In this document: piece by piece, positions 2,234 to 39,300 of the stretch
Numbering within the stretch: the first letter of the stretch is position 1
How the letters are laid out: the number at the start of each line of letters is the position of its first letter
Assembly: GCA_964440415.1 (NCBI GenBank)
Contig: CAYTSL010000001.1
Coordinates: 1 to 47,731, forward strand
From: an uncultured Flavobacteriaceae bacterium
GTDB taxonomy: Bacteria > Bacteroidota > Bacteroidia > Flavobacteriales > Flavobacteriaceae
DNA: 47,731 nucleotides
Direction of reading: 5' to 3'
Position numbers and translations under genes: made by a program
Notes under the pieces: model-generated
What the model saw: the letters and a program-made list of their open reading frames with translations, nothing else
What the model was told of the DNA's origin: nothing
The model's database searches: none

Positions 2234-3763
2234 TTATAAATTATTAATTGCAGTATTAAGCCAATTCATCCTCTCATTGTACCAATTTTTTAAATGGTCT
2301 ACTTCTTCTTCATAGGTATTATATACCACTGGGTTAGGCCAAACGTAAGTACCAATGGTATTCCATTTGTCATTGTTTTCTTCTTGGGCTAAACTTAAGT
2401 AATCAGCATAAAAATCCATTTTATCTAAAATATAATCCTGATTATTTCTGAAATAAGTAAATCGAGATTTGACTTGATCTACAAAATCAGGGTCTTCAAA
2501 AAGTCTACTATACCACGGATTATCCTTAACCCAAAACCCTTCAGGATATTCAGCATCAGCATAATCCACATTGCCAAAAGACAGATCGAAATCCCATAGT
2601 GGTCCCATTTTTATTTTTTGGCCTGGAATAACATTTAAATAGATACTTGAATAATTTCGGGAATCTACATTTTTTGTGATTTCACTAATTATATACCAGT
2701 CTATAAAACTTGGAATGTCAATATAACTGGTATAACCTGTTGCAGGGTTGGTAAATTGATCACTCATTAAAACGGTTTCAAATTCATTGATCAAATCCTT
2801 TATATATATGTACTCGCTGCTGGCAACTGTCAAATCCGGTTCTTTAATGTTGATCAAGAAATTACCAGTATAAAAGGTGACATCATCTGGGTCTATATGT
2901 GTAATATCATCTATCTCTAACAAATACCCTGTATCGCCTAAAACAACCCTGTAATCACTTTCTTCAACTTTTTGAGTAATATTATAGGTGCCATTGTATT
3001 CATTATTCACAAATACTTCAGAGAAATGACTTTCTGGTGTCCAGTCCAAATTACTTATATAGCCCATTTCAAATGCTATTTTATTTCGCATCATGGTCTT
3101 ATCTGAGTATTCTGCCAGAAAGATCCACTTTTTATCTTCCGGCATTCCCAAGACTTCAGTTTTATCACTGTACTTTAATTGATATGGTTTTTTTGGATGA
3201 ATGCCCCATGTGGAGTGACCTCTACCTCGAATTTTCATATCAGAAACTGTGTTATCGTCATAATCCAACCCACCAAAAATAGATGCATTTCCTTCTATAT
3301 AATCGTCCTTTGAATCAATAGGGTTTCCATTTGTGTCGATGTAGAAAATTGGTAGACCAGTAAAATACGTTGACCTGACATCATAATCCTTTTGTTCTCC
3401 TTCACTATCCAGAACTGAATAAGTGACAACATTACTAAAGTCATTAAAAGTTGTTCCGCTGGTCTGACTAAAACCATCTACAAAAACTTCAGTTCCGTTA
3501 TATTCAAAAGTTGCAGAAAGGCTAGTTATATCTCCTTCATAAGGGACTCTACCTGAAATAGTGTTGTTATCTATTGATAAGTTAATATTCGAATTCAAGC
3601 TTGGATTATCGCTTGCCAAAAAGGAAAAACTTGTAATTTCAGCTTGTTCTAAAACGATACTTGTTGGTTCGTTTTCGTTATTGCAGGAAAACAACAGTAC
3701 AGCAATGATAAAATAAGTAGAGTGAAACAATCTACTTATCCCTCTTGAATTAATAGCAATCAT
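2234..3763 (-). CDS. CotH-family protein with lipoprotein signal and N-terminal Ig-like beta-sandwich
   Basis: 509-aa ORF with a lipoprotein signal (LLFSC). Residues ~35-125 look like an Ig/cadherin-like sandwich (ITSFSF...VVTYSV). The rest carries CotH landmarks as I recall them: KIRGRGHSTW..KKPYQLKY, WIFLAEYSDKTMMRNKIAFE, VFVNNEYNGTYNI, GPLWDFDLSFGN. Confidence 0.7.
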   Translation of the reverse strand: MIAINSRGISRLFHSTYFIIAVLLFSCNNENEPTSIVLEQAEITSFSFLASDNPSLNSNINLSIDNNTISGRVPYEGDITSLSATFEYNGTEVFVDGFSQTSGTTFNDFSNVVTYSVLDSEGEQKDYDVRSTYFTGLPIFYIDTNGNPIDSKDDYIEGNASIFGGLDYDDNTVSDMKIRGRGHSTWGIHPKKPYQLKYSDKTEVLGMPEDKKWIFLAEYSDKTMMRNKIAFEMGYISNLDWTPESHFSEVFVNNEYNGTYNITQKVEESDYRVVLGDTGYLLEIDDITHIDPDDVTFYTGNFLINIKEPDLTVASSEYIYIKDLINEFETVLMSDQFTNPATGYTSYIDIPSFIDWYIISEITKNVDSRNYSSIYLNVIPGQKIKMGPLWDFDLSFGNVDYADAEYPEGFWVKDNPWYSRLFEDPDFVDQVKSRFTYFRNNQDYILDKMDFYADYLSLAQEENNDKWNTIGTYVWPNPVVYNTYEEEVDHLKNWYNERMNWLNTAINNL

Positions 3764-3775
3764 GATTATGGGTTT

Positions 3776-4714
3776 TTAGACTTCTTTGTTACTGAATAGT
3801 TTACTCATCACCAGTTTCGGTGTTCGGTCTACTTTAAAAAGACCCCAATGTTTTTCAGGTTCAAGAGCTTCTTCAGATCCTTTCCAAGATTCATCAAAAG
3901 CCTCGAATACAAAGGTAAGAATATCATCCTCTTCGCACCAATTAATCAGATCATTATAATAAGTACTTTGATATTCTTCACTAACATTACTTGGGCAAAT
4001 ACCTCTTCCGTTAGAATAAGTTGTCCAACCAGCTTCAGTTATTACTACTGGTTTATTAGGATAGGTATCAGCTACAGAAAAATAATTTTGTTTGGTATAT
4101 TCCATGGCCTCATGAATGTTCTTATACTCCCAAACTGGATAGGTATGAATAGATATAAAATCGACTTCATCGACCAGATCTTTTAATTTATCTAGCCAGG
4201 GAAGATAATTTTCACAAAATGTAACCGGTTGTTTAGCTCCTTTTTTAATCATCCTCACATAATTAATAACACTTTCAACGGGTACATAATGATCGGTCCA
4301 ATCAACACAAGCTTCATTTCCTGCGGAAAGGGAGAAAATAATTTCAGGATATTGGTTTGCAAAACGAATCAGTTTCTTAATCTGATTGACATTTACTATC
4401 TTGTTTTTTGCCAGTTGTTCTTCGGTATATGATCCTCCCCAAGGGCAACCATAATTGTTAGCTTCCGCAACAATATAAGCCCCAAGCATGACTTTAAAAT
4501 CAAGCTTTTCTTTTTGGATAACGTCCAATACAATTTCGGCGTGTTCATCACAATCGTACAATCGTAAATATTTCCAATGCTTATGAAGTATTAAAAGGTC
4601 TTCTTTAATCTCTTCATAAGTCGGAACCTTTCCTCCAGGCATTTGACCTTCTCTAAAACCTGAATAACAAATAGCTTTTCCAGGTTCAATTTTTAATTCT
4701 TCAGTATATTTCAT
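3776..4714 (-). CDS. GH17-family beta-1,3-glucanase/glucanosyltransferase, no signal peptide
   Basis: 312 aa. GH17 landmarks: LRLYD, SAGNEACV (acid/base), VVITEAGWTT (nucleophile), FVFEAFDESWKG, EKHWGLF. The N-terminus MKYTEELKIEPGK has no hydrophobic leader. Confidence 0.8.
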   Translation of the reverse strand: MKYTEELKIEPGKAICYSGFREGQMPGGKVPTYEEIKEDLLILHKHWKYLRLYDCDEHAEIVLDVIQKEKLDFKVMLGAYIVAEANNYGCPWGGSYTEEQLAKNKIVNVNQIKKLIRFANQYPEIIFSLSAGNEACVDWTDHYVPVESVINYVRMIKKGAKQPVTFCENYLPWLDKLKDLVDEVDFISIHTYPVWEYKNIHEAMEYTKQNYFSVADTYPNKPVVITEAGWTTYSNGRGICPSNVSEEYQSTYYNDLINWCEEDDILTFVFEAFDESWKGSEEALEPEKHWGLFKVDRTPKLVMSKLFSNKEV

Positions 4715-4743
4715 TCAACTAAGGTTAAGTTCCAGTTTATTTT

Positions 4744-5628
4744 TTAATACTTAAGTTTTTCATTTTTATCCCAAAGTCCCCAGTAAGCCCCAACATCTCC
4801 TTCGGCACCAACCTTCCAGGACTCATCAAAGGAGGAGAAATAGAACATTTCTATATCTTCTTCTTCAGACCACTTTTGTGCATTAATAAAATATTTGATT
4901 GCATTTTCTTCTGATGGTTGTGCCCCATGAAACAGTTCACCCAGACTTGGCCATCCTGTTTCAGTGATTATTACTTTTTTACCATTGCCCGCTTTAGCAG
5001 CTTGGTTATACATGTCTTTCATATATAAGAGCGAATACTCCATACTACAACCTTCCCAGTACGGATAACAGTTTGCAAGAATGACATCACAAGCTTCTGT
5101 TATTCTCGGTCTATGCGCGAACTCATAATAGGCATCTACATAACCCATAGGGATATCTGGCACCTCTTTCTTTACCCGATTCATAAAACCTAAAAGCTCG
5201 TCTTCTGTTAGATCATTGCGGTACATAACTTCGTTACCCACAGCAGCAACATCAACCAATCCTTCTTTGGCTAAAGCAATTAAACCACTTATTTCTTTCT
5301 CATTCATGTCAGGATCGTCTCCTAACCAGGCTCCAACCAAAGTCTTAATTCCATATTCCTTGGCAATTCGTGGAATTAGTTCATTCCCGTCTAAACAAGA
5401 AAAAGAACGTATCCATTTGGTATATGGTTTGACGATTTTCATTCGGCGTCTGATCTGTTCTTCGGTAATTTCAGTTCCCGGTCCTTGTCCATCTTCATAA
5501 GTACTAAAACATAAACCGTGCATGCCGTTTTTTAATACTCTAGTAAAAAGATTTTGTATTCCTTTTGGTGTTTTATTAGCATAATCTATTCCTACTAATG
5601 CTTTAACTTTTCCTGCTCTAATTGACAT
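4744..5628 (-). CDS. GH17-family enzyme, no signal peptide (tandem paralog A)
   Basis: 294 aa. Landmarks: AVGNEVMYRND, VIITETGWPS, FYFSSFDESWK, YWGLWDKNEKLKY. By eye it is about three-quarters identical to 5856..6767. Confidence 0.85.
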   Translation of the reverse strand: MSIRAGKVKALVGIDYANKTPKGIQNLFTRVLKNGMHGLCFSTYEDGQGPGTEITEEQIRRRMKIVKPYTKWIRSFSCLDGNELIPRIAKEYGIKTLVGAWLGDDPDMNEKEISGLIALAKEGLVDVAAVGNEVMYRNDLTEDELLGFMNRVKKEVPDIPMGYVDAYYEFAHRPRITEACDVILANCYPYWEGCSMEYSLLYMKDMYNQAAKAGNGKKVIITETGWPSLGELFHGAQPSEENAIKYFINAQKWSEEEDIEMFYFSSFDESWKVGAEGDVGAYWGLWDKNEKLKY

Positions 5629-5739
5629 AATTCTGTTATTCTATTTGATTCTTTTTATTACAATTCACCTCTTTGTTTAGCTTACTTCCACCGCATCCAA
5701 ACAACTAATGTTGATGTTAGCCTGAATAATGATAATGAT

Positions 5740-5758
5740 CATTTGCAAGCGGCAAATG
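5740..5758 (-). other. 7-bp stem hairpin (CATTTGC-N5-GCAAATG) in the 227-bp spacer between the tandem GH17 paralogs
   Basis: The inverted repeat is read directly from the sequence. On the minus strand it is followed by an only moderately U-rich tail, so it is at best a weak terminator or processing site. Confidence 0.3.
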
Positions 5759-5855
5759 TAAGTGTGATATATTACCTCAAAAACATCTGTTTTAATAAAA
5801 ATCTATTCAATATTAACCTTCAAATGACTAAGGCAAATATTAGTTCTAATTTTAT

Positions 5856-6767
5856 TTAAAATTTTAATTTTTCATTTTTATCCCATAATCCCCAGTATGC
5901 TCCAACATCACCTTCTGGACCTGCTTTCCATGATTCATCAAACGAAGAGAAATAAAAAATCTCTATATCATTTTTCGCAGACCATACCTGGCTATTGATG
6001 AAATATTTCATGGCATTTTCTTCGGAAGCAAGAGCGCTACCTAAACCACCACCTTCACTCGGCCAACCCGTTTCGGTAATAATAACTTTCTTACCGTTTC
6101 CAGCCGCTGCAGCCTGAGCAAACATTTGTTTCATATGGAGCAATGAATATTCCATGTGGCAACCTTCCCAATACGGATAACAGTTGGCCAAAATTACATC
6201 ACAAGCCTCGGTAATTTCCGGATGAACACTGAACTCATAATAGGCATCAACATATCCTACTGGTATATCGTCTGGTATTGCTCCTTTTACTTGGTTAATG
6301 AAGCCTAACAATTCCTCTTTACTCAGATCATTACGATACAACACTTCATTTCCAACTGCGGCAATATCTACATAGCCCTCATTTGCCAGCTTAATAAGAC
6401 CTGCTATTTCACGTTCATTGATTTCCTGGTCGTATCCCAACCAAGCTCCAACCAATGTCTTTATACCAAATTCTTTTGCAATTTTTGGAATAAATTCATT
6501 ACCATCTGTACATGAAAAGGAACGTATCCATTTTGTGTATGGTTGAATAATTTTCATTCGTCTTCTCACTTGTTCTTCCGTAATGATATCACCTGGTTGC
6601 TGTCCATCTTCATAAAGACTAAAACATAGACCATGCATACCACTTTTTAATGTTTTTCTCCATAATTTGGCTAATTCTTTTAAGGAATATTTGGTAAAAT
6701 CTACTCCAGAATGTTCACTTAAGTCAATTCCTTTTAGCGAAAATTGATGTCCTTCTCTGTATGACAT
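5856..6767 (-). CDS. GH17-family enzyme, no signal peptide (tandem paralog B)
   Basis: 303 aa. Landmarks: AVGNEVLYRND, VIITETGWPS, FYFSSFDESWK, YWGLWDKNEKLKF. The N-terminus MSYREGHQFSLKG lacks a leader. Confidence 0.85.
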   Translation of the reverse strand: MSYREGHQFSLKGIDLSEHSGVDFTKYSLKELAKLWRKTLKSGMHGLCFSLYEDGQQPGDIITEEQVRRRMKIIQPYTKWIRSFSCTDGNEFIPKIAKEFGIKTLVGAWLGYDQEINEREIAGLIKLANEGYVDIAAVGNEVLYRNDLSKEELLGFINQVKGAIPDDIPVGYVDAYYEFSVHPEITEACDVILANCYPYWEGCHMEYSLLHMKQMFAQAAAAGNGKKVIITETGWPSEGGGLGSALASEENAMKYFINSQVWSAKNDIEIFYFSSFDESWKAGPEGDVGAYWGLWDKNEKLKF

Positions 6768-8413: not shown

Positions 8414-9907
8414 TTATGATTTGGGGATGATTATTGTTTGAATGGCTTGACCACTTATTTGTACATCTGTATTACTTTCATTTAATGTCAAGCTAAAGTT
8501 TTTAGCTTCAGAATCCTGATTAAAAACAACAACTGCAATGGAACCATCTGTGTTTTTTGCTGCCGTTACCATTAAATGTTTATCCGGATTTTCAAATCCA
8601 ATACGCTCTGCTCCAGGTCTTATAAATTTGCTAAAATGAGCCATTGTATAGTAAAGAGGTGTTAAATATACCTCGTCTTTTTCAGGATCAACTATTACAG
8701 GTGCAACACACCAATTTTCAAACCAATTTGGTCCACCTTTAGTGTCAAGTACCATATTCCAATCTACCCAACCATCTACCCAATTATTCAAGCAGCCAAT
8801 AATATCTCTTGCATAGCGATTTACTGGTGCGTATTTAGGATGCAAATACTTGTCTTTGTCTGGTGCCCAATCCCAACCCCAATCTGTTGCTTCTTTAGAC
8901 CAATACCATTTATCATCTTGCCATTTAGGGATTTCCGAATCAACACATGCTTCTGCTTGGATAAGAAGTTTATTAGGAGCTTTTTCATGAGCATATTGTA
9001 ATGTTTCAGGCATCCAATCGTTAGTGCTCGCGTACCAATGAATAGCTGTGCCATCAAAATATTTTGAAGTTTCCTCATTTTTATACATTTCATCTACCCA
9101 GTCTTTTAAGTGATCACGATTTTGGTCGTATCCTAAAATTTTTAGATCACCTTTTCCATCTGCTTCGAGTTTAGGTCCTAAATGATTCATTACAAAATCA
9201 TTCTGTTCTTCAGCAGTAAAATGCATACTCTCCCAGTTGTTTCCATTTCCAAGTGGTTCGTTCTCTACAGTGAAACCCCAAATATCTATTCCTTCAGCCT
9301 TATAAGCGTCTACATATTTAGAGAAGAATAATGCCCAAGTATCATAATATTCTGGAAGTAATTTACCACCAACCCATTTATTGTTATCTTTCATCCAAGG
9401 AGCTGCTGTCCATGGTGAACCAAAGATTTTAAATCCATCTTCAGAAGCAGCCATTGCATCTTTAATCATAGGAATTAAATCGTCTTGGTCTTCCTTGATA
9501 GAAAAATGTTTTAACTCTTTATCTCCTTCAACAGGACTGTAAGAGTAGTTACTTAATGAAAAGTCACAAGAATTCATGTGAGTTCTAGTTAGGGAATAGT
9601 TAGCTCCATCTTTACTAAAATATGCATCAATAACTTTTTTACGATTCTCTTTGCTTATTTTGTTCAATAAATAAGCTGAAGATTCTGTAAAAGCGCCACC
9701 AAATCCTGTTATTGTTTGAAATTTTTCTTCTGGTAATAATTTTATAGTTGCAGGGCTATTTCCTTTAGAAAAATTAGCTATTTTTTTAAGCTTATTACCA
9801 TTGGCAGACGTTTCATAGACATCAACAATCAAAGGATCCGGTTTTTTATCGCAGCTTAACATAACCAAAAAGGAAAAAAAATAAAGATAATATTTGAGCG
9901 AATTCAT
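8414..9907 (-). CDS. GH30-family glycoside hydrolase lipoprotein (likely beta-1,6-glucan acting)
   Basis: 497 aa with a lipoprotein signal (VMLSC). GH30 landmarks: GFGGAFTES, GSPWTAAPWMK, TVENEP (acid/base), LIQAEAC. The specificity is inferred from laminarin-locus context only. Confidence 0.85.
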   Translation of the reverse strand: MNSLKYYLYFFSFLVMLSCDKKPDPLIVDVYETSANGNKLKKIANFSKGNSPATIKLLPEEKFQTITGFGGAFTESSAYLLNKISKENRKKVIDAYFSKDGANYSLTRTHMNSCDFSLSNYSYSPVEGDKELKHFSIKEDQDDLIPMIKDAMAASEDGFKIFGSPWTAAPWMKDNNKWVGGKLLPEYYDTWALFFSKYVDAYKAEGIDIWGFTVENEPLGNGNNWESMHFTAEEQNDFVMNHLGPKLEADGKGDLKILGYDQNRDHLKDWVDEMYKNEETSKYFDGTAIHWYASTNDWMPETLQYAHEKAPNKLLIQAEACVDSEIPKWQDDKWYWSKEATDWGWDWAPDKDKYLHPKYAPVNRYARDIIGCLNNWVDGWVDWNMVLDTKGGPNWFENWCVAPVIVDPEKDEVYLTPLYYTMAHFSKFIRPGAERIGFENPDKHLMVTAAKNTDGSIAVVVFNQDSEAKNFSLTLNESNTDVQISGQAIQTIIIPKS

Positions 9908-9949
9908 ATTCGATAAAACTTATTTAAGGTTTTTAATTTATCTATATTA

Positions 9950-9985
9950 TAACAAACTAACGGCTAGATTAATATTTGCCGTTAG
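9950..9985 (-). terminator. Putative rho-independent terminator/attenuator after the 897-aa gene
   Basis: The minus strand reads CTAACGGC-N13-GCCGTTAG followed by TTTGTTAT. It sits 18 nt downstream of the stop at 10003. Confidence 0.5.
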
Positions 9986-10002
9986 CTTGTTGTATTTATA
10001 TA

Positions 10003-12696
10003 TTATGGATTAAGAGTTACAGAAACATTATCAATATTAGCTGATACACTGCATCCTGAAGCACCTCCACAAACTGTTTCAATTAGGAATGAAATTCCAC
10101 CAGAAACATCTATTCCTCCTGGTATTGTAAAAGTTCCTGTAAATGTCGTCCAAGAGCCAGCTAAAGTAGGAGCTGGAAAAACATGTGTAAAGGAAGCGCC
10201 GTCAGCAGCACCTTCTCCAAAAAGGAGCACATTAAATACACCACCTTCGCCTGCAACTCCACCTATATGGTCAAATTTAACTTGAACAACATCACCTGCT
10301 GCAACTGTACCACCACCAATGCTTTCTTGCTTAAATGCAGGATTACTTGGTCCACCGGTTGCAATTTTACCAGACCAGGAACCACCATTATTGATTGTAT
10401 TATCCAATGCTACTGTCCCACCATTTGGAAATAATAACCATCCTGTATCATCGCCTGTTTCAAAATCACCATTAGTAGCAAGGTTACCACCAGTACCACC
10501 GCCTCCGCCACCGCCGCAATCTACACAGAAAAGAGATACATTATCTATAACTACAACGCCTGTATCTGCTCCCATATCGAATATAACACGACTATTTGCG
10601 CCTCCAAAATCTGCTGATGAAAGCGTTAGAGTAAAGGTTTGTGTTGTGCTTGTTAAGTTAACAGTTTCTGTATCGTTGTCCCATGGATCCTCATTTAAAC
10701 CAATACCTGCTACCATTGTACGATTACCATCTGATGAAGCTTCAAACTTAAGCGTATAGGTTTCTCCCTGTGTTATGGCAACAACTTGACTCAAATTTAC
10801 ATCGAAAGGTTGACCAGCTGTTGTAACATTAGCAAAATTGAAAGAATTATCACCTTCTGTCTGTACATCAAGGGCATTACCACTCCAGGCTTCGGTGCCA
10901 TTTTCAAAGTCACCATTGGTTAAAAGGCCGTCATCAAAAGAGCCGCCACCGCCGCCACCTGATCCATACAAGGATAAGTCATCAAAATAATACGTATCTG
11001 TATTGTCTGCGTTCAAATCAAAGAAAATAACAATCTTATTGAACTTATCACTGTCTGCGCTTGTGAAAGGAAATGTTAACTCTTCCCATGCACCAGTTAC
11101 TGAAGTTGTTAAAAATTGTTCAACAAAATTCCCTGGCGTTCCAATCTCTTCCAGTTTAATTCTAACTTCTGTATTTGCTATTCCAGACCATACTTTTATT
11201 TTTAATCCTTCATTAGCATTAAAATCTAATTTTGCATCTAGATCTATTTGGTTATTATCCCAAGGGTTGTTTCCTAGTTTTGTGATTTTACCTACTTTAC
11301 ACGACTTGTTTACATCGTTATCAAAATCTGGATTATCTATCCATTCAAAATCTCCACCATCTTCAATGATACTTGCTGTTGGATCTGACATAAATGTTAA
11401 GTTAAAATCTGCTCCAGCAAGGGACTGCATTGTTTCAGCTTCACAAGGATCTGCTACGTCTCCTGCATCTTGCTCTATATCGTCAATATAGAATGTTCCA
11501 GCCGCTGTTCCAGGGCCATCAACAAATATTATCATGTCATTGTATGATGCCGTTGATATGAAGGTAAAGGTCAGCTCTTCCCAACCAGAACCCGTATGGT
11601 TTACATCCACCTCTACAGGTGCTTCTGTGCCATCTTCTAGCTTCAACTTTATAGGTAAAGCTTGGTCTGAAAACAATTTAAGTTTAATACCTTTATCTGT
11701 TGTAAAATCTATTGGTGTATCTAAATTAAAAAATGCATTTTCCCAATTTTCTCCAACATTGGTCATTTTTCCAACTTTTGATGGGTCACTATTAATTCCT
11801 GATAATTCTGGATTATCAACTACTTCAAAAGAAACATTACCCACAATTTTAGCAACATAATCGATACCATTACAATCGAAATTTATTGGCAATTCCAGAT
11901 CGGTTTCTAAACAAGGTATATCTGTTGTAGCAATTTGAGATATATCATCTAAATAGAACGTTCCTGAAGTTGTTCCAGGACCATCCACAAACATTGTGAA
12001 TCTTGAATAACTTCCTGCGGAATCAAACGTAAAATATATCTCTTCCCAACCAGAACCTCCATGGCTTGTCGTGGCTTCTATTGGAGCGCCAGTACCTTCT
12101 TCTAATTTTAGTAACAAATCAATTGGTGTGTCCGACCAAAAGTTAGCTTTTATTGACTTGTTTATAGATAAATCTATTGGTGATCCTAAATCTAGATAAA
12201 AACCTTCAAATTGCGCACCTATGTTAGTGATAGCTCCTACTTTAGAGGCGCTTGTGTTTGACCCTGAAAGATCTGGATTATCAACTATTTCAAAAGAGGC
12301 TCCTTCAAAGGTTTCAGCACCGTAACTTGTATTTTCACCATCAAAAGTAATTGGCAAGGTCGCTATTTCAGGTATTAAAATTGTTATTTCATCTTGAAAC
12401 GTATCTGAAGCTCCTGCAACATTTTTCGCGTTCATGGTTATAGTATAAGTTCCGTTAGTATAAACCTTTACTGGGTTTATTAAAGTAGAAGAGCTTCCGT
12501 CTCCCAAATCCCATTCATAATTTGTTGCATTCTCTGATATATTTATAAATGTAACAGTCCCTGTATCAATATTTAAAGTATAAGTAAAACCGGCAATAAC
12601 GTTTGGTAATAGTGTATCATCATCCTCACACCCAGTTAAGGAAATTGCTAAAATCATAATCGACATTAGCTTAAAATTTCTAATTAATTGTTTCAT
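10003..12696 (-). CDS. Multimodular surface lipoprotein: PKD domain + three ~150-aa glucan-binding-like modules + two CBM4/9-like modules joined by poly-Gly linkers
   Basis: 897 aa with a lipoprotein signal and an acidic tail (LTGCEDDD). PKD motif: YEWDLGDGSSS...YTITMNAKNVAGASD. There are three repeats of the pattern LPI(T/N)FD...F(E)(I/V)VDNP(D/E)LSG.N.S..KVG..TN...W.....L..PID......I....WS.....(I/L)..KLE.......E.......GWEE..F.F......(Y/F)..(I/M).(I/F)F(V/F)D. There are two GDFE(N/T)G modules, and G6/G7 linkers. Confidence 0.8.
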   Translation of the reverse strand: MKQLIRNFKLMSIMILAISLTGCEDDDTLLPNVIAGFTYTLNIDTGTVTFINISENATNYEWDLGDGSSSTLINPVKVYTNGTYTITMNAKNVAGASDTFQDEITILIPEIATLPITFDGENTSYGAETFEGASFEIVDNPDLSGSNTSASKVGAITNIGAQFEGFYLDLGSPIDLSINKSIKANFWSDTPIDLLLKLEEGTGAPIEATTSHGGSGWEEIYFTFDSAGSYSRFTMFVDGPGTTSGTFYLDDISQIATTDIPCLETDLELPINFDCNGIDYVAKIVGNVSFEVVDNPELSGINSDPSKVGKMTNVGENWENAFFNLDTPIDFTTDKGIKLKLFSDQALPIKLKLEDGTEAPVEVDVNHTGSGWEELTFTFISTASYNDMIIFVDGPGTAAGTFYIDDIEQDAGDVADPCEAETMQSLAGADFNLTFMSDPTASIIEDGGDFEWIDNPDFDNDVNKSCKVGKITKLGNNPWDNNQIDLDAKLDFNANEGLKIKVWSGIANTEVRIKLEEIGTPGNFVEQFLTTSVTGAWEELTFPFTSADSDKFNKIVIFFDLNADNTDTYYFDDLSLYGSGGGGGGSFDDGLLTNGDFENGTEAWSGNALDVQTEGDNSFNFANVTTAGQPFDVNLSQVVAITQGETYTLKFEASSDGNRTMVAGIGLNEDPWDNDTETVNLTSTTQTFTLTLSSADFGGANSRVIFDMGADTGVVVIDNVSLFCVDCGGGGGGGTGGNLATNGDFETGDDTGWLLFPNGGTVALDNTINNGGSWSGKIATGGPSNPAFKQESIGGGTVAAGDVVQVKFDHIGGVAGEGGVFNVLLFGEGAADGASFTHVFPAPTLAGSWTTFTGTFTIPGGIDVSGGISFLIETVCGGASGCSVSANIDNVSVTLNP

Positions 12697-12710: not shown

Positions 12711-13601
12711 TTAGTTGTCAAAATTATTTTTATATACTCTTACATAATCTACTAGCATGCTTTGTGGAAAACTTGCATCTGCATCTGGAGTGCCTGGAAA
12801 AGCACCACCAACAGCCAAATTGATAATAATATAGAAAGGCTTATTAAAAACCCATTCTCCTAAAGCACCTGTACCATCGTCTGGTGTTATTTCAAGATCA
12901 GAAGGTGTGATTTGGTTATACAATACATCATCTACATAGTAATTGATATAATCAGGTCCCCATTCAATGCCAAAAATGTGAAAACCAGCATCAAAACGAT
13001 CATTTCCTAAATCATAACTTTTTGTAATCTGACCTTGAGGATCCGTTAGACCAGAATAACCAGGACCATGAACCGTTCCGCTTACGCTTGTTGGTTCTTG
13101 TCTGCGATATTCCATAACGTCTATTTCTCCGCATAGTGGCCAACCAACTTCTTCACAATCTGCTCCTAACAGCCAAAACGCTGGCCAAAGACCTGATCCT
13201 TCTGGCACTCTAATACGTGCTTCAAAACGGCCATAAGCCTGTTCGAATTTATCTCTTGTTAATAGTTTTGCAGAAGTATAAGAAGACCCATTAAACTGCT
13301 CTTCTTGAGCCGTTATTAATAATATTCCGTTTTGTACTGTTACATTTTCAGAACGATCTGTATAGTATTGCAACTCGTTATTACCCCAGCCATTAACTCC
13401 CGTGCCTATATCGTAACCCCAATTGGCAGGATTAGGAGACCCTTCAACATCAAACTCATCTTGCCATACTAAATCTGTAAATTCAGCAATGGTTTGTGTA
13501 TCATCTGTTGCACAGCTAGAAATAACTAAAACCGCTACCACCAGAAAAGACATAAACAGTAAGGCTTTTGTTCTTATTTTATATTTTATTGTTTTGTTCA
13601 T
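12711..13601 (-). CDS. GH16 laminarinase-type endo-beta-1,3-glucanase lipoprotein
   Basis: 296 aa with a lipoprotein signal (ISSCATDD). It has the GH16 catalytic motif E-I-D-V-M-E (CGEIDVMEY), plus NELQYYT and WPAFWLLG. Confidence 0.9.
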   Translation of the reverse strand: MNKTIKYKIRTKALLFMSFLVVAVLVISSCATDDTQTIAEFTDLVWQDEFDVEGSPNPANWGYDIGTGVNGWGNNELQYYTDRSENVTVQNGILLITAQEEQFNGSSYTSAKLLTRDKFEQAYGRFEARIRVPEGSGLWPAFWLLGADCEEVGWPLCGEIDVMEYRRQEPTSVSGTVHGPGYSGLTDPQGQITKSYDLGNDRFDAGFHIFGIEWGPDYINYYVDDVLYNQITPSDLEITPDDGTGALGEWVFNKPFYIIINLAVGGAFPGTPDADASFPQSMLVDYVRVYKNNFDN

Positions 13602-13634: not shown

Positions 13635-15047
13635 TTATTCTCTATAGTAATAGACGTTATCCACAAAAATGCTGGAAATTGTAGCATCTGAAATGAAGAA
13701 TATAAGACCTAATTCATTTCTACTTACTAACCCAAAATCATCTAATGGAATATCTATACTTACCCATTCTTCAGATAATAATTCTGAACTATTTATCCTC
13801 ACTGTACCAGAGGTTTCAACATTACCGACTGAGTTAAGTAATTGTATATCTATATAGTCTCCAGAATCAACAGCTTCTTGAACATTAATATCCATATGAA
13901 TATATGTCATTAAGGTAGCATTTACAGGTGCTACGTCCAAAAACGTACCAATAGCTACAAAATTTAGTTCTGTATAACTTATTATATTATCGTTTCCAAT
14001 AAAAATATCATTTTGACCTTGTGTGGTTTGAAAACCATCCAAAAAATATCCGTTATAGTAATCTACGGGTACATTGTTATAGGCATCAGAAAAAATGGAT
14101 ATCACATCGTCTGGATCTCGGGTTGGGGGAATTGGTGCCGTTTCAAATGCTCCCAATACCGTAATATTTAATGATCCTTCTGCTTGCACCCCAGCCATAC
14201 TTGCTGTTATAGTAGCCGTACCAATAGATAACGTTGAAAGTTCACCTGCTTCTCCTACCGATATAACACTAGGTTCTGACGATGTCCAATCAAAATAACT
14301 TCCGGCAGCACTAACTGTTTGATCTAAACCTGAAGGTAAATTAAACGTCACATAAGCCGGCGTTATTTGACCTTGTGTCCCTAAAAACAGATCACCTTCA
14401 AAATCAAAACCATCGGCAATTTGTGGTCTTGGAGCTCCAAGAGTTCCTAACTTTTCAAATTGTAAGTCATCAATCCAAAAGGTATAACCAAATCCGCCAG
14501 TATCTACTGTATTTGCAGCATACTGAAGCATCCCTCTTTCTTCAATAAGTTTAGAAGGGTCTGGTATTGGAATAATATATTTAACCCAGTTTGTACTTAA
14601 AAGTATATTCTCTACATCTGCTTGATATTTATTTTCTAGAAAGTCTATACCAAAACCTATATTACCAATAGTGACACCTCGTGAAGCCTTAGCCCAAAAC
14701 GTTAAGGCATCGAATCCTGTTAAGTCGCGACCAGCACCATCTACTCTAAGTATACCACCAGCATAACCGCCTTCTGGGTCGTCTGCATTAGGCACATCAA
14801 ACCGCAAAGAGAATTCACTTTCGTAGCCGGCACCATCAAAACTCACAGCCGTTGCTTTTGAACCTGAAAAAGGAAAATAAAAGTTAGAACCAAGACCAAT
14901 AGGCGCGTCTATAAATATCTCTCCGTTATTAGAGTTGGTTGCAAACTCTACCTCATCTGATAAATCTCTTTCACAACTAACAGTTACTATAAAAATCAGT
15001 GTTAAAAAGAGAGCCGTTTTTGTATAAATAAATTTTATATTCTTCAT
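13635..15047 (-). CDS. Surface lipoprotein, candidate glycan-binding protein (CBM-like / Big_2-like Ig / CBM-like)
   Basis: 470 aa with a lipoprotein signal and an acidic tail (VSCERDLSDE). The central segment (SSEPSVISVGEAGELSTLSIGTATITASMAGVQAEGSLNITV) looks like a bacterial Ig-like group 2 domain, flanked by beta-rich modules. It starts 12 nt after the upstream 1048-aa gene. Function is inferred from context only. Confidence 0.55.
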   Translation of the reverse strand: MKNIKFIYTKTALFLTLIFIVTVSCERDLSDEVEFATNSNNGEIFIDAPIGLGSNFYFPFSGSKATAVSFDGAGYESEFSLRFDVPNADDPEGGYAGGILRVDGAGRDLTGFDALTFWAKASRGVTIGNIGFGIDFLENKYQADVENILLSTNWVKYIIPIPDPSKLIEERGMLQYAANTVDTGGFGYTFWIDDLQFEKLGTLGAPRPQIADGFDFEGDLFLGTQGQITPAYVTFNLPSGLDQTVSAAGSYFDWTSSEPSVISVGEAGELSTLSIGTATITASMAGVQAEGSLNITVLGAFETAPIPPTRDPDDVISIFSDAYNNVPVDYYNGYFLDGFQTTQGQNDIFIGNDNIISYTELNFVAIGTFLDVAPVNATLMTYIHMDINVQEAVDSGDYIDIQLLNSVGNVETSGTVRINSSELLSEEWVSIDIPLDDFGLVSRNELGLIFFISDATISSIFVDNVYYYRE

Positions 15048-15059
15048 TTTTCTAATTTT

Positions 15060-18000
15060 TTATTTACCAATATTGATATGTATGTATGTTCTAATTTCCC
15101 ATTCGTTCCCATTATCAAATCCAACGGGACTTATAATAGGTGCTGGAGCAAACTCAATTGCTTCATTAGGACTATATCGTGGTGAATATTGATCCAATGA
15201 ACGCCATGTGCCACGTATTCCAATTCTAGTATTTGGTAATATAAACCAATCTGGCTTCCCAAGACTCGTTGACAGGTCCAACATTAATTGTACGGGGTAT
15301 GTTAAGTTGAAATCACGATGATAATCAAAAGGGCCCCAATCATCAATTTTAAATGAATGAACCACTTTAATTTTATTATATATTAATCTAATGTCACCTC
15401 CAATGCGTGTAATTAATCGCTCATCGCTACCATTTGCCTGACCGTTACCTGCATACAGGTTCGCAATAATACCTAGGTCTGGACTAATTTTAGATACAAT
15501 ACGCGTATGTGCCTCCCATAGATCTTCTGCAGGGGCTGAATTAGGAAATGCGAATTGCGTACGATCAGCTAAAAAGCCAATAGCAGCATCTTGCGCTGTT
15601 GGATGATGGCGATAGATAAACCCAAGATTAAAAGCAAGCTTCGCATCTTCCTGGCGATCATTGTCCCATTCGTACATCCAAGTCCCTGGTGTAGGGTCGT
15701 ATGTAATTAATAACTCACCTGCTGTTGTTTCTCTGTTAGATCTCACAACAAATGGATCGTCTATAATGTTTCTTAGTCTTCCTGGAGCTTGCACATCGTT
15801 AGGCATTGCAGCTACAATAGGTTTTTGCCACAAGAAGTTAGGTGCAATTTGAACATTACCAAAGCTGTACGTGAACCCAGTCAAGAAATTAGTTTGGTTA
15901 CCACTTCCAGAATCCTTAAGTTTCCAACCAGTAAAGGTTCTTGTTTGATCTGCACCACCACCAGCAACCAAGCCTTGTGCAGCACCTTGTGCATACCAAT
16001 TGAATACACCTTTTTGATACGTGATTTTTGCTTTTCCTCCCCAATTATCTTCAGAATTGACTTTATCATTATAAATTATATAATTTCCTGGTGTACCTTC
16101 TGCGACTTGAAATTCTCTGCCATTTAATGGTTGGCCTCCCCAAATACCACCAAGCTCTAGTTTAAAATCTCCAAATTCTCTTTCGATATGAAGTGCCACT
16201 CTGCGGGTTTCTGGAACTGGTATGGCATAAGAACTAACCGTTTGACTTTGTTCATCAACATCATTGTGGTAAATAGCAGTCACACCATAATGGCCAAATT
16301 TTCTACTATATTTTAATAGGATCGCAGGGTTTGCTCCCCACCATAATTGTTGGCCAAAAGCTACCTTAAATCCTGTTATGGCATTCTTGCCATCAATTTC
16401 AAGACCATTAATTTCACCTTGATAGATATCTAGGTTTGGTCCATAATTTGCTTCAGGATACAATCCGAAGAAATCGCCTTCATAGCCCCAATGATAATGT
16501 CCTGTTCTATAAAATCCTCGGAGATCAAAATCTTTGGCTTTCCATTCGAATTCAGCATTATAGACTTGCACTCTATTTACGTCGGAAAGATCCACATTTC
16601 CTTGGTCGGAATTAACCGATTTAGTTCGCCCTCTATTTTCATAAAAAATTTCGTCAATTGGATTATCTGCCACATTCCCAAGAATATTGAAGTTAACATT
16701 GGCTCTCATATTTGGTGATGGATTACCTTCTACACCAAAATAGTAAGACTGCATATGATCAAAACCAAGGGCATTAGGAAATTCTCCTCCGTCTGGATCA
16801 GCTTCGTCTGGAGTCGTAATCAAGCTGCCTCCTGTATTGAATGTTGTAAATTCGGCTCTTAACTGACTGATACGAATTTTTTGACTAGAACCTCCTGTTA
16901 AGGCTGCTTTATCTCCACGTGCTCTTAGTTTAGCATCGGTCAAATCAATATTCTTAAAATGATTGCTAACAAATTCAGCATTAACACCCTCGCCATAAGG
17001 ATTTAATTGATGTGCTTCTTTTAACGCATAATAAGCCGCTCTTGGATACAGATCATAATTACCTCTAGCATCTGTTGGTCCTTTTGCACAAATACCAAAC
17101 CACTCCTCGTTCATGTTATTGTCACCTTCTTTTTCAACGTCCCTATAATAACCACCGTTTGACCATGATGCATTGTTATCATGAAGGTCCGCGTTTTTCC
17201 TGTCATCAAATCCATATTTCCACCATCCATCACTAAATTGAAATGTAAATCCTCCTAATGAATTTTCTGCTTTTCCTAAACCAGCCGCATTTTCATAGAT
17301 CTCTTTCCAGTTTTCAACCATATAAAAGGCTTGAGACTCTTGATCTTCCGCATTGTTCACTGCATTGAAGGCATCTGCTCCAAACTCAGTAAACATAATT
17401 GGCTTATTAAGTTTATCCTTAACCACCTGAAACATATCACCAAAAGAAACACCACGATATACATTAGTACCATATATGTCGATATCTGGACATTCTTCAG
17501 CTATTATATCAATAAACAAAACATCACCATTACACATGGCTACCGGGTGAGAAGAATCTGCAGCCTTGATTTTTTTAGCAGCCTCATTCATTAGCTTATA
17601 CATAGGTCTTCCACGTGATTCCCCTATAAATGCTCGTTCCTCTTCTGCATCTGGAAAATCTTCTGTTTCAGCTCCTTGCCAGAAAAGACCATAGTTATTT
17701 TCATTACCTAGCAAATACAACAACAGACCTGGTGTATTTTTATATCCTTTTACCAACTCATCCACTTCTGACATTAAGAATTCTTGGGTACGCGCATCAG
17801 AGTAATCGGTAATAGGAGTCCAAACACCATTTAAGGTTAATCCATATCGTCCAAACGAATGATTTAGCATGGTATAAATGCCATAGTTTTCGTAGATATA
17901 CTTTATCCATTTTGCAGGCACGCCTGTATATTGACGTATAACATTGACTCCCATATTCCTGAGTAACCCCATTTCTGCATCAAGTCCTGATTTAATCACA

Positions 18001-18206
18001 TCATCTGACTTCTTCCAAAAATTAGCATTCACCGTATTTGTCCCAATAGGTATATAATCCCAGTTCATACCATTCATCATGAAATCCTTTCCGTTCACTA
18101 CTAGTTTAGTTCCAGAATCATTTGTTTCAACAGATACTTTATCAGCCTGGGCAAAAACACCAATTGAAAGTAAAAATAGAACTAGTCTAAGAAATTTGTT
18201 TTTCAT
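15060..18206 (-). CDS. Exported fusion protein: N-terminal clan GH-A TIM-barrel glycosidase (GH158/GH2-like) + ~600-aa C-terminal putative outer-membrane beta-barrel
   Basis: 1048 aa with a type-I signal peptide (IGVFAQA/DK). N-terminal domain motifs: LVVNGKDFMMNGMNW, LLGNENNYG, IMFTEFGADAF, FQFSDGWWKYG. This domain is paralogous to the 332-aa ORF at 18437..19435. From about residue 440 there are many amphipathic alternating strands rich in Gly and aromatics (see findings). The coding call is secure; the domain interpretation is moderate. Confidence 0.6.
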   Translation of the reverse strand: MKNKFLRLVLFLLSIGVFAQADKVSVETNDSGTKLVVNGKDFMMNGMNWDYIPIGTNTVNANFWKKSDDVIKSGLDAEMGLLRNMGVNVIRQYTGVPAKWIKYIYENYGIYTMLNHSFGRYGLTLNGVWTPITDYSDARTQEFLMSEVDELVKGYKNTPGLLLYLLGNENNYGLFWQGAETEDFPDAEEERAFIGESRGRPMYKLMNEAAKKIKAADSSHPVAMCNGDVLFIDIIAEECPDIDIYGTNVYRGVSFGDMFQVVKDKLNKPIMFTEFGADAFNAVNNAEDQESQAFYMVENWKEIYENAAGLGKAENSLGGFTFQFSDGWWKYGFDDRKNADLHDNNASWSNGGYYRDVEKEGDNNMNEEWFGICAKGPTDARGNYDLYPRAAYYALKEAHQLNPYGEGVNAEFVSNHFKNIDLTDAKLRARGDKAALTGGSSQKIRISQLRAEFTTFNTGGSLITTPDEADPDGGEFPNALGFDHMQSYYFGVEGNPSPNMRANVNFNILGNVADNPIDEIFYENRGRTKSVNSDQGNVDLSDVNRVQVYNAEFEWKAKDFDLRGFYRTGHYHWGYEGDFFGLYPEANYGPNLDIYQGEINGLEIDGKNAITGFKVAFGQQLWWGANPAILLKYSRKFGHYGVTAIYHNDVDEQSQTVSSYAIPVPETRRVALHIEREFGDFKLELGGIWGGQPLNGREFQVAEGTPGNYIIYNDKVNSEDNWGGKAKITYQKGVFNWYAQGAAQGLVAGGGADQTRTFTGWKLKDSGSGNQTNFLTGFTYSFGNVQIAPNFLWQKPIVAAMPNDVQAPGRLRNIIDDPFVVRSNRETTAGELLITYDPTPGTWMYEWDNDRQEDAKLAFNLGFIYRHHPTAQDAAIGFLADRTQFAFPNSAPAEDLWEAHTRIVSKISPDLGIIANLYAGNGQANGSDERLITRIGGDIRLIYNKIKVVHSFKIDDWGPFDYHRDFNLTYPVQLMLDLSTSLGKPDWFILPNTRIGIRGTWRSLDQYSPRYSPNEAIEFAPAPIISPVGFDNGNEWEIRTYIHINIGK

Positions 18207-18271: not shown

Positions 18272-18312
18272 TTGTATAATTCTAAAAATAGACCTATACA
18301 AAAACCATACAT
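18272..18312 (-). promoter_or_regulatory. Candidate operator cluster in the 230-bp leader of the 1048-aa gene: inverted TATACAA (18272-18278) + CCTATACAAAAACCATACA (18293-18311)
   Basis: The 19-mer is identical to 768-786 and lies 87-105 nt upstream of the ATG at 18206, in the same orientation relative to its gene. Confidence 0.5.
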
Positions 18313-18436: not shown

Positions 18437-19435
18437 CTATTCGGTATATTTATTTTTTATTACTTCAAAAGTCAGCTTCTTGTTTCTTTCAATATCAACC
18501 ATTCCCCAATATTCTTCATTTGGAGAACCGTCATATGGAACACCACTACTATTTGGGGCCCATCCTCCAGGATCTTGGGAGTCATTATTTCCGGCCTTCC
18601 ACCATCCATCTGTAAATGAGAACATGGCTACACCAGAACATATATCAGTAGAGTTAAAGACTGAATTTAAAATATTCTTGTTGGCATCTGCTTGCGCTTT
18701 TTCGTTATTCCCTTCTTCATAACCATCCCTTGAAATAGTCATATAGCTATCCCCTCCAGCTTCCGATAAATACATTGGTTTTGAACTAACTGCACTCCAT
18801 TGAGAAAAAATAGTTGTAGGATCATCCCAGCGATACACATTCATTCCCCAAACATCAATGTTTTTTGATAGTGAGAGAGCCAATGAATCAGGCAACTCAC
18901 CATGAGCAGTAGTCACTGGATGTGATGGGTCGTTTTCATGAATAAGTTGAGCAGCATTATTCATGGCATTATACCAGTTCTTTATATCTCCATCAAACCA
19001 TTCCGGATGATAGTTATACTCATTGCCAAGTTCCCACATTAAGATTGCGTTATGATTTTTATAGGTGTTTACATAATCTATAAATGAGCCTGAAAGAATA
19101 TCGAAGTTTCCGTCTTGGTTGTAACCAAAACCAAGAACAACTTTTAAACCTGCTGCTTCTATCTCATCGAGAACGGCTTTATCATCAATAGGAGAATATA
19201 CTCTGATAGTATTGATACCAGCCTCAACCATTAATTCTAAATCTTCAGTCAAGTTGCTGAAGTCTCTATTATCGCTTCCTTTTGGAACAGGATGATAACA
19301 GATTCCTTTAATGGTATAAGGAGAATCATTCACTAATATTTGCCTTTCAGAAGTAGTGGCAATATCTAAAGCAATTTTTTTAGTACAGCTCAAAAAAGTG
19401 ATTGCAATAAGTAAAAAATAAAGGTAATGCTTCAT
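18437..19435 (-). CDS. Clan GH-A glycoside hydrolase lipoprotein, possibly a GH158-type endo-beta-1,3-glucanase
   Basis: 332 aa with a lipoprotein signal (TFLSC). Motifs: ILVNDSPYTIKGICYH, TIRVY, WELGNEYNY (acid/base NE), MYLSEAGGD (nucleophile), FSFTDGWWKAG, EEYWGMV. The family assignment is tentative because no HMM search was possible. Confidence 0.6.
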   Translation of the reverse strand: MKHYLYFLLIAITFLSCTKKIALDIATTSERQILVNDSPYTIKGICYHPVPKGSDNRDFSNLTEDLELMVEAGINTIRVYSPIDDKAVLDEIEAAGLKVVLGFGYNQDGNFDILSGSFIDYVNTYKNHNAILMWELGNEYNYHPEWFDGDIKNWYNAMNNAAQLIHENDPSHPVTTAHGELPDSLALSLSKNIDVWGMNVYRWDDPTTIFSQWSAVSSKPMYLSEAGGDSYMTISRDGYEEGNNEKAQADANKNILNSVFNSTDICSGVAMFSFTDGWWKAGNNDSQDPGGWAPNSSGVPYDGSPNEEYWGMVDIERNKKLTFEVIKNKYTE

Positions 19436-36237: not shown

Positions 36238-36256
36238 GTACAACAAAAAACATACA
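36238..36256 (-). promoter_or_regulatory. Degenerate copy of the leader element (GTACAACAAAAAACATACA) upstream of susC
   Basis: It lies 63-81 nt upstream of the susC ATG (36175) and matches the 19-mer at 13 of 19 positions when right-aligned. Confidence 0.3.
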
Positions 36257-36383
36257 CTAAAAAAATAGATATATTTTCTTGATAAAACACTTTGAATGAC
36301 AACCTGTTAGCAGCGCTTTAAGACTAATAAATATAGAGAAATAGAGGGAAGAATACTGTTAAAAAATACAGATGTTGTGGTAA

Positions 36384-36391
36384 TGTATAGG
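36384..36391 (+). promoter_or_regulatory. Inverted CCTATACA half-site (TGTATAGG followed by T7) between the regulator stop and susC
   Basis: It is an exact reverse complement of the first 8 nt of the 19-mer. A short motif in AT-rich DNA could occur by chance. Confidence 0.25.
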
Positions 36392-36413
36392 TTTTTTTAA
36401 GAATGTTGTAGTT

Positions 36414-39253: not shown

Positions 39254-39300
39254 ATACAATATTGTATGGTTTTTTTTAATCTAATTTTTTGACTATACAA
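39254..39300. promoter_or_regulatory. Candidate autoregulatory sites: perfect palindrome ATACAATATTGTAT (39254-39267, includes CCATACAA on the minus strand) and CTATACAA (39293-39300)
   Basis: The palindrome lies 33-46 nt upstream of the regulator ATG at 39221. It uses the same ATACAA half-site as the 19-mer element. Confidence 0.45.

Follow-up and report, generated by a model that had tools for sequence, protein, structure and literature searches.

The window, that is, the whole stretch of 47,731 nucleotides analysed here (positions 1 to 47,731 of contig CAYTSL010000001.1, assembly GCA_964440415.1, from an uncultured Flavobacteriaceae bacterium), encodes on its minus strand at 15060..18206 an intact protein of 1048 amino acids (aa; stop codon at 15060-15062), hereafter the fusion, in which a glycoside hydrolase (GH) domain related to the families GH158 and GH157 is joined to a C-terminal region predicted to be a large outer-membrane beta-barrel. 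The gene belongs to a run of 22 co-oriented minus-strand genes covering 38 kb (934-39221), in which only three gaps exceed 200 bp. The upstream section of this cluster contains the BguR-type regulator (36414-39221), SusC (33152-36175) and SusD (31655-33142), followed by an SGBP-like protein and a 301-aa protein without assigned function, and then by GH16, GH30, an MFS transporter, the beta-1,3-glucan phosphorylase GH149, GH17 and a 332-aa TIM-barrel lipoprotein (18437-19435). Past a gap of 230 bp, one of those three, there are the fusion, a 470-aa lipoprotein whose gene starts 12 bp downstream of it, a second GH16, a PKD/CBM4_9 protein, GH30 and an MFS_2 transporter, and the cluster ends with three tandem GH17 paralogs (3776-6767), a CotH-like protein (2234-3763) and GH5 (934-2196), all on the same strand.

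The first-pass annotation of this DNA placed the fusion at the head of a SusC/D-less operon. This is correct for the genes downstream of the 230-bp gap, among which no SusC/D is present in the window, and incorrect for the window as a whole, where SusC and SusD lie approximately 13-15 kb upstream of the fusion within the same 38-kb cluster; the window SusC matches the TonB-dependent transporter plug (PF07715) and barrel signatures, unlike the fusion. The run as a whole gives the impression of two laminarin systems placed one after the other, with GH16, GH30 and MFS duplicated: the first is a polysaccharide utilisation locus (PUL) of the SusC/D type (regulator, SusC, SusD, SGBP-like protein, GH16, GH30, MFS, GH149, GH17), and the second is a barrel-type module (fusion, lipoprotein, GH16, PKD/CBM, GH30, MFS_2).

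The N-terminal glycoside hydrolase

Residues 1-21 of the fusion (18144..18206, minus strand) form a type-I (signal peptidase I) signal peptide with a hydrophobic core, an AXA-like site at the putative cleavage point (…GVFAQA|DK) and no Cys. The N-terminus MKNKFLRLVLFLLSIGVFAQA|DK has the same form, without a lipobox Cys, in the close homologs, so that a type-I rather than a lipoprotein signal, as first proposed, is borne out, and all the sequence motifs quoted in the first-pass annotation were found at their given residues of the 1048-aa protein. The signal is followed by a clan GH-A (beta/alpha)8 catalytic domain of the GH158/GH157 type (residues ~22-405; 16992..18143, minus strand), with N168-E169 as the acid/base pair and E274 as the nucleophile.

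In the Pfam scan, residues 33-285 match the TIM barrel family PF02836 with an E-value of 1.4e-6, the match being partial (profile positions 6-220 of 302). When 149 members of the family were combined into a profile, it matched GH158 structures ahead of any GH2, namely the endo-laminarinase BuGH158 of Bacteroides uniformis (6PAL, 4.5e-7) and a second GH158 (9ORO, 7.4e-7). The full-length AlphaFold2 model, with a mean predicted local distance difference test score (pLDDT) of 80.6 and a predicted TM-score (pTM) of 0.60, has the alternating strands and helices of a (beta/alpha)8 barrel over residues ~24-400, and its best Foldseek matches are the GH158 structures 9P26 (6.8e-15) and 6PAL (1.1e-13), then the GH157 enzyme LaGH157 (9FZ9, 4.4e-12) and only then GH2 glucuronidases. 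The relationship is remote: a single-sequence phmmer comparison with GH158 gave an E-value of 1.5e-3 over 82 residues and the structural alignments approximately 13-14% identity. The fusion enzyme shares with BuGH158 (6PAL), GH158(Pro) (9ORO/9P26) and LaGH157 the fold and the aligned Asn-Glu after beta4 and Glu after beta7, these two families of endo-beta-1,3-glucanases being its best matches both by sequence profile and by structure, and it is likewise found in a beta-1,3-glucan utilisation locus, where GH16, GH17, GH30 and GH149 accompany it in the window. More precisely, N168-E169 (in LLGNENNYG) and E274 (in MFTEFGAD) align with N136/E137 and E220 of BuGH158, the mutation of which abolishes its activity (PMC7157763). 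All of N168, E169, Y250, E274, W328, W329, E367 and E368 are invariant in the 92 fused homologs (92/92), which diverge to ~35% identity. Thus, the clan GH-A assignment of the first-pass annotation stands and may be refined by the profile, the Foldseek ranking and the invariant NE...E set to a GH158/GH157-like enzyme rather than a true GH2, most probably a retaining beta-1,3-glucanase, endo-acting in all likelihood on laminarin or its oligosaccharides.

A GH2 identity was rejected: only the partial PF02836 match speaks of it, no Glyco_hydro_2_N or Glyco_hydro_2 domain was detected in the fusion by the Pfam scan, so that the multi-domain GH2 architecture is lacking, the NCBIfam beta-galactosidase model reaches only 19.6 bits, its cutoff being 1284, and GH158/GH157 are closer by profile and Foldseek. 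Nevertheless, the members of the family are annotated publicly as 'GH2 TIM barrel domain-containing protein', 'beta-galactosidase', 'GH2 glycosidase' or 'hypothetical', and in the published description of a Muricauda PUL a GH2-labelled relative of the fusion was read as a beta-1,6-glucosidase (PMC13188888). Judged by the domain comparisons above, the 'GH2' label of the databases and of the Muricauda description stretches the name of a Pfam domain too far.

Two further differences set the fusion apart from its characterised relatives. It carries a type-I signal peptide where the GH158 relative has a lipoprotein signal, and the Ig-like C-terminal domain of BuGH158 is not seen after residue ~400 of the model, its place being taken by two helices and the 605-aa membrane barrel. 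The helices (410-418 and 422-437 by DSSP on the full-length model) belong to an inter-domain linker of residues ~406-443 (16878..16991, minus strand), in which the pLDDT falls below 50 at residues 437-441.

The paralogy of the enzyme with the stand-alone 332-aa lipoprotein upstream of the gap (18437-19435, minus strand) proved real, with a BLASTP E-value of 4e-20 at 23% identity. This lipoprotein is closest to GH157 (LaGH157, 2.2e-8) and GH158 (1.7e-7), not to GH2. Its lipobox Cys is followed by basic residues (C-TKK), whereas the 470-aa lipoprotein and GH16 have acidic ones there, which suggests that the 332-aa lipoprotein faces the periplasm.

Fold of the C-terminal region

The residues ~444-1048 (15063..16877, minus strand) constitute the presumed outer-membrane beta-barrel domain of ~26 strands, the assignment of which is based on AlphaFold2, Foldseek, amphipathicity, the pattern of loops, turns and indels, the stand-alone homologs and, at the level of the family, the C-terminal signal. 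The AlphaFold2 model of this part, built on a 149-sequence alignment with identities of 25-87%, has a pLDDT of 80.7 and a pTM of 0.81 and consists of one all-beta meander, with ~26 long hairpin-joined strands as counted from DSSP. Searched against the Protein Data Bank (PDB) with Foldseek, the barrel model gave 345 matches at E <= 1e-3. Every one of the top 50 is an outer-membrane barrel, and among them are the barrels of TonB-dependent transporters, MtrB, LptD, AlgE, OccK/OpdK, OmpF, MOMP and the PapC usher. One face of the predicted strands is 74% hydrophobic, aromatic or Gly and 7% charged, the corresponding values for the other face being 39% and 30%; in the model, strands of this kind are those of a barrel that turns one side to the lipid and the other to a water-filled lumen, and they are not compatible with the core of a sandwich. 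The 13 amphipathic strands that the first-pass annotation quoted in favour of a large outer-membrane barrel all map onto the AlphaFold2 models, where they cover 19 of the 26 strands. The protein combines a Sec signal peptide with an amphipathic all-beta meander in which short turns alternate with long loops.

The family has no counterpart among the curated ones. No Pfam family covers residues ~440-1048 at E <= 10, nor does any NCBIfam model at E <= 1, and the same is true of five divergent homologs; in particular, no Pfam match at E <= 10 was obtained for the barrel and these homologs with the DUF5916-type, LamB, OprB, KdgM or AlgE families. The fusion lacks the plug PF07715, a TonB box and the TonB_dep_Rec signature (Pfam at E <= 10, NCBIfam at E <= 1), and no autotransporter family (PF03797 or relatives) matches at E <= 10, the ~26 strands contrasting with the 12-16 strands of that class. 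The profile of the stand-alone barrel alignment gave zero matches to PDB sequences at E <= 10. The comparison with known families proposed in the first-pass annotation accordingly revealed no homology to a known soluble GH accessory region, and the C-terminal ~605 residues are predicted to be a large, ~26-stranded outer-membrane barrel representing a family without a curated model or a solved relative.

The C-terminal end was the caveat raised at first, since the window protein ends in ...NIGK. The classical C-terminal signal of outer-membrane barrels ends in Phe, and such a terminal Phe is present in 51/52 of the stand-alone and 59/62 of the gamma-type fused homologs, i.e. in 110/114 of the proteobacterial homologs together. 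The fusion and its clade end in ...YIHINIGK (...EIRTYIHINIGK), in which I1046 aligns with the proteobacterial terminal Phe and GK is a two-residue tail past it, conserved across the Flavobacteriia clade; the observation was thus sound, and it has found an explanation.

According to the opposite view, the C-terminal 600 aa would be stacked soluble beta-sandwiches of the Ig or CBM (carbohydrate-binding module) kind, such as many GH2-type enzymes possess, and the protein periplasmic or secreted. Alternating hydrophobic patterns do occur in sandwiches as well, the public names ('GH2 TIM barrel domain-containing protein' or 'beta-galactosidase') would agree with this, and the window protein has no terminal aromatic residue. 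The continuous meander with its pTM of 0.81, the absence of sandwich domains (0) from the top 50 Foldseek matches, the inward strand face with 30% of charged residues, the Phe-ending proteobacterial homologs and the failure of any Ig or CBM family to match at E <= 10 led to the rejection of this reading, which is hardly credible.

Distribution of the family and its lipoprotein partner

The C-terminal region is no product of chance: it has >5000 homologs at 90% clustering and 518 clusters at 50% identity (E <= 1e-3, search of 1.84 billion representatives), and its relatives occur in the genomes of at least 597 species, one genome being taken per species. The statistics of loci given below refer to the 80 best loci from these at least 597 genomes (barrel 68-83% identical), 79 loci being available for the neighbour counts; they span many genera of Flavobacteriaceae together with contigs binned to Saprospiraceae/Lewinellaceae.

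Within this set, the order of genes is strikingly constant. The 470-aa lipoprotein (13635..15047, minus strand), a probable surface glycan-binding partner, directly follows the fusion in 78/79 loci, and in nearly all of them GH16 comes next, so that the co-occurrence which the first-pass annotation proposed to check turned out to be almost complete. The immediate upstream neighbour of the fusion is a BguR-type regulator in 45/79 loci. A typical compact locus reads BguR, fusion, lipoprotein, GH16, GH149, GH17, GH30 and MFS, as in Flavobacterium chungnamense and in the complete genome of Ca. Marifrigoribacter, and no SusC-like gene lies within +/-10 kb of the fusion in 35/48 loci with complete flanks. 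The earlier statement that the fusion is outside the Sus paradigm is, therefore, half right for the window, which has its own SusC/D pair, and fully right for most of the orthologous loci. In Formosa agariphila, the slot after BguR is occupied by SusC/SusD (bioRxiv 10.64898/2026.01.10.698779), and, judged by gene order, it is the fusion/lipoprotein pair that takes this classical slot in most orthologous loci. The same gene order as in the compact loci is found in the published laminarin cluster of Muricauda, which has no SusC/D and for which the outer-membrane step was left unexplained (PMC13188888).

In the lipoprotein, the lipobox is followed by C-E-R-D-x-S-D-E, with two or more acidic residues at +1..+6 in 71/73 orthologs, a stretch that we take to resemble the surface-export signal of Bacteroidota lipoproteins. 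Its homologs are named 'carbohydrate-binding protein' by NCBI, and the lipoprotein profile recognised among PDB sequences only the central Big_2 domain, the flanking domains having no match. The third conserved member of the module is the GH16 lipoprotein of 296 aa (12711..13601, minus strand; PF00722, E-value 2.8e-22), with the N-terminus …SSC|ATDD. Next to it in the window lies an 897-aa lipoprotein (10003-12696, minus strand) with a PKD domain, repeated modules of ~170 aa, CBM4_9 domains and poly-Gly linkers (GGGGGGS, GGGGGGGTGG), which occurs in only about one third of the orthologous loci.

Across the same loci, the barrel (68-83% identity) is more strongly conserved than the lipoprotein (41-64%), and its conservation is approximately that of the catalytic domain. 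Among outer-membrane proteins this is uncommon, drift of the external loops being what would normally be seen.

Apart from the fused forms of ~1000-1100 aa, the family includes stand-alone barrels of ~565-600 aa, which have their own signal peptides and start at about residue 450 of the fusion. The profile of the stand-alone barrels retrieves both stand-alone and fused forms from Gammaproteobacteria (Marinobacterium, Chromatiales, Leucothrix). In 4/4 stand-alone gammaproteobacterial loci the barrel gene is situated beside GH16, a LacI regulator and a five-gene oligosaccharide importer of the ATP-binding cassette (ABC) family with an SBP_bac_5-type component, and the gamma-type fused gene, seen in one locus, is surrounded by GH16, MFS_2, GH30 and GH1. 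No TonB-dependent receptor was called in the flanks of these five loci (within 10 kb at the gamma-type fused one), and apart from the barrel no outer-membrane component of the beta-1,3-glucan pathway is evident there. The barrel appears to have a function of its own, because its stand-alone forms with their own signal peptides sit in sugar-import loci. The lipoprotein partner appears to be specific to Bacteroidota, since no homolog of it was found after the barrel in the gammaproteobacterial loci examined.

Several members of the family depart from these two layouts. In the fusion P0241 (1218 aa) the GH domain and the barrel are preceded by an additional CBM4_9 at the N-terminus, and P0126 (1351 aa) is extended N-terminally by approximately 350 residues without an assigned nature. 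In the metagenomic gammaproteobacterial locus L002 the stand-alone barrel is preceded by type II secretion genes and followed by a 564-aa protein (9788-11482) that has no Pfam match and is unlike any window protein. In the gammaproteobacterial loci L084 (12848-19767) and L085 (5423-15487) giant GH16 proteins of 1417 and 1174 aa, respectively, adjoin the stand-alone barrel gene, and both loci carry a type I secretion set of OEP and ABC exporter, an AprE-like adaptor being called in L085; in these loci the laminarinase may be secreted by the type I system while the barrel takes up the products.

The presence of secretion genes touches upon the view that the barrel is located in the outer membrane and is no channel for glycan import, serving instead as a scaffold, as a receptor or sensor feeding BguR, or as an exporter. 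Large barrels that are no nutrient channels, such as LptD and MtrB, are indeed among the structural matches, the fusion gene often adjoins the regulator, two gammaproteobacterial loci encode a type I secretion system as well, and the transport role of the family members is itself a presumed one. However, in many loci the barrel is the sole outer-membrane component within 10 kb, amid gene sets that otherwise cover the whole path from the GH16 at the surface to the MFS or ABC importer of the inner membrane; a TolC-like OEP is part of the type I systems themselves, and BguR is described as a one-component membrane-spanning sensor which needs no partner (bioRxiv 10.64898/2026.01.10.698779). A barrel without a channel role is considered, on balance, distinctly improbable.

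As to regulation, a promoter-like motif, TGTATGGTTTTTGT, is present in the 230-bp gap at 18298..18311 (minus strand), 92-105 nt upstream of the start codon of the fusion. Its general form, TGTATGKTTTTTGT, has four matches in the window against 0.22 expected, a number reached in 0/100 shuffles, and all the copies (773-786, 18298-18311 and 36243-36256 on the minus strand and 39263-39276 on the plus strand) are intergenic and ahead of likely transcription units; the copy at 36243-36256 is upstream of SusC, and that on the opposite strand, which has one mismatch, is ahead of the transhydrogenase genes. About half of the ortholog upstream regions (36-37 of 75) contain the related 8-mers TGTATGTT and GTTTTTTG. 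The motif would act as a promoter, and the gap together with it fits the proposal of the first-pass annotation that the fusion is an operon head, i.e. that it may head its own transcription unit. The scan for sigma-70 promoters and terminators returned counts equal to the shuffled expectation, the sigma-70 consensus being the wrong one for Bacteroidota, and the upstream regions of the fusion and SusC, when compared for a shared operator, had only the short promoter-like motif in common. Another element, ACCTATACATTACCACAACAT, is located in the BguR-SusC intergenic region (36372-36392, minus strand), just downstream of the regulator gene, and its 8-mers recur in 24-26 of the 75 fusion upstream regions of other genomes, in which the fusion comes immediately after the regulator; in the window it stays with SusC and was not found upstream of the fusion. 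The element is a candidate operator of BguR.

Topology, proposed import route and known systems

As a rule, the turns of an outer-membrane barrel on the periplasmic side are short, its external loops are long and variable, and its C-terminus is periplasmic. In the barrel of the fusion, turns of only two residues come after strands 2, 8, 10, 12, 14, 16, 20 and 22 and one of three residues after strand 4, the indels between Flavobacteriia and Gammaproteobacteria are mostly in the odd-to-even connections, and the last strand is even-numbered. Because of this, strand parity in the model favours an even strand count and a periplasmic barrel N-terminus, and hence a glucanase at the periplasmic mouth of the pore. 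Several of the long loops are rich in aromatic residues and unusually conserved: the loop 567-599 (RTGHYHWGYEGDFFGLYPEANYGPNLDIY...) shows an identity of 96% within the clade and of 43% to Gammaproteobacteria, further loops of this kind being LWWGANP (621-627), DPTPGTWMYEWDNDRQEDAKL (837-857) and GPFDYHRDFNL (958-968), and the barrel residues invariant throughout the family include H572, W573, D578, D593 and W623. By analogy with specific porins, these loops may fold into the lumen as a constriction or a sugar-binding track.

The reading that we favour, with a confidence somewhat better than even, is that the Sec-exported glucanase-barrel is a TonB-independent conduit for laminari-oligosaccharides, with the tethered enzyme at the N-terminal end of the barrel, which by strand parity would be the periplasmic one. 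The surface GH16 (12711-13601) and the lipoprotein co-transcribed with the fusion (13635-15047) would capture and nick laminarin outside the cell, and the oligosaccharides derived from it would diffuse through the TonB-independent, substrate-specific barrel, with the aromatic-rich loops lining or constricting the pore. The tethered GH158-like domain would cut the chains as they emerge from the pore and so keep an inward gradient, GH17 and GH30 would trim the products, the MFS carriers would import them, and GH149 would phosphorolyse them. A broader version, held with rather less than even confidence, is that the fusion and the lipoprotein make up a self-contained machine for TonB-independent glycan import, consisting of an enzyme-coupled pore and a surface glycan-binding lid, as an alternative to SusC/D for laminarin in marine Bacteroidota, the bare pore having the same role in Gammaproteobacteria.

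Several observations weigh against this import reading. The TM-scores of the Foldseek matches to solved barrels are low (0.3-0.39), which indicates a likeness to the class and to no particular family; the strand S1 (444-460) is not clearly amphipathic; and the closure of the barrel and the number of strands rest on the DSSP output, pTM and the Foldseek class match, occlusion of the lumen and the position of the GH domain not being seen directly. The window has a complete SusC/D pair, so that uptake here need not a priori involve the barrel, and the absence of SusC within 10 kb in other loci leaves room for SusC/D farther off or elsewhere in the genome.

The membrane side of the enzyme is where the favoured reading meets its main competitor, in which the barrel anchors and exports its own enzyme in the manner of an autotransporter, the linker 410-437 passing through the lumen and the glucanase standing outside, where it would feed SusC/D or the same pore. 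The order of signal peptide, N-terminal enzyme, helical linker and C-terminal barrel mirrors that of type Va autotransporters such as EstA. The fusion lacks a lipobox, so that the usual lipoprotein route of Bacteroidota to the surface is closed to it, and with a full-length pTM of only 0.60 the inter-domain geometry is uncertain even in the model, the arrangement being not confidently predicted. In addition, the related BuGH158 in Bacteroides uniformis is predicted to be a cell-surface enzyme (PMC7157763), which likewise favours an external position. However, with ~26 strands and 605 aa the barrel is twice as large as those of the autotransporters and far above their 12-16 strands, it has no signature of that family at E <= 10, and it exists also in the enzyme-less form with its own signal peptide in sugar-import loci; the long loops are highly conserved and aromatic-rich, which is unexpected for a mere anchor, and a folded TIM barrel of 385 aa is a demanding passenger. 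Surface display is, therefore, rated as unlikely, although less so than a barrel without a channel role.

In gene position, the fusion and the lipoprotein resemble SusC/SusD, in that the gene of an outer-membrane barrel is directly followed by that of a surface lipoprotein, the pair standing in most orthologous loci directly after a regulator and ahead of glycoside hydrolases; the barrels of TonB-dependent transporters are also among the best structural matches. The fusion pair differs in having no plug, no TonB box, no CarboxypepD_reg N-terminal domain and no SusD/RagB match (Pfam/NCBIfam), and its barrel carries an enzyme and is presumably energy-independent. In their probable workings the diffusion channels LamB/ScrY, ChiP, CymA and KdgM come closest, as plug-less barrels encoded beside the enzymes for one glycan and an ABC or MFS importer; the fusion barrel shares with them the conserved aromatic-rich loops of the inward type, and the chitoporin 7vu2 is among the structural matches. 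It differs from them by the absence of a sequence relationship, by ~26 strands as compared with 12-18, by the fusion to a glycoside hydrolase in most members and by the pairing with a lipoprotein in Bacteroidota. A fusion of a transporter with a carbohydrate-active enzyme (CAZyme) has also been described in the laminarin PULs of Formosa, namely the MFS-GH17 protein FbGH17b, for which a coupling of hydrolysis with transport was suggested (Unfried et al. 2018, PMC6246565). Both occur in laminarin loci of marine Flavobacteriia, but the latter is an alpha-helical MFS carrier of the inner membrane, whereas the fusion considered here has an outer-membrane beta-barrel and an enzyme of another GH family.

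In the searchable full-text literature, subscription-only papers aside, no description was found of a fusion of a GH158- or GH2-like enzyme with an outer-membrane barrel or of a laminarin porin. The enzyme and the barrel are each of a known class; what is new is the family of large outer-membrane barrels and the enzyme-barrel-lipoprotein architecture in which it occurs, and the fusion may be placed as the second transporter-CAZyme fusion alongside MFS-GH17. The turnover of laminarin by marine Bacteroidota is a major carbon flux in the ocean, and its uptake has been modelled and followed in metaproteomes almost wholly via SusC/D. Recognition of the enzyme-bearing barrel and its fixed lipoprotein partner corrects the annotation, would supply the missing outer-membrane step in the SusC/D-less loci and offers a candidate, open to direct testing, for an import of glycans in Bacteroidota that does without TonB. 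If the reading of the pair as an import machine is true, many of the 'PULs without SusC/D' would take up an abundant polysaccharide of the ocean by a route outside the current models.

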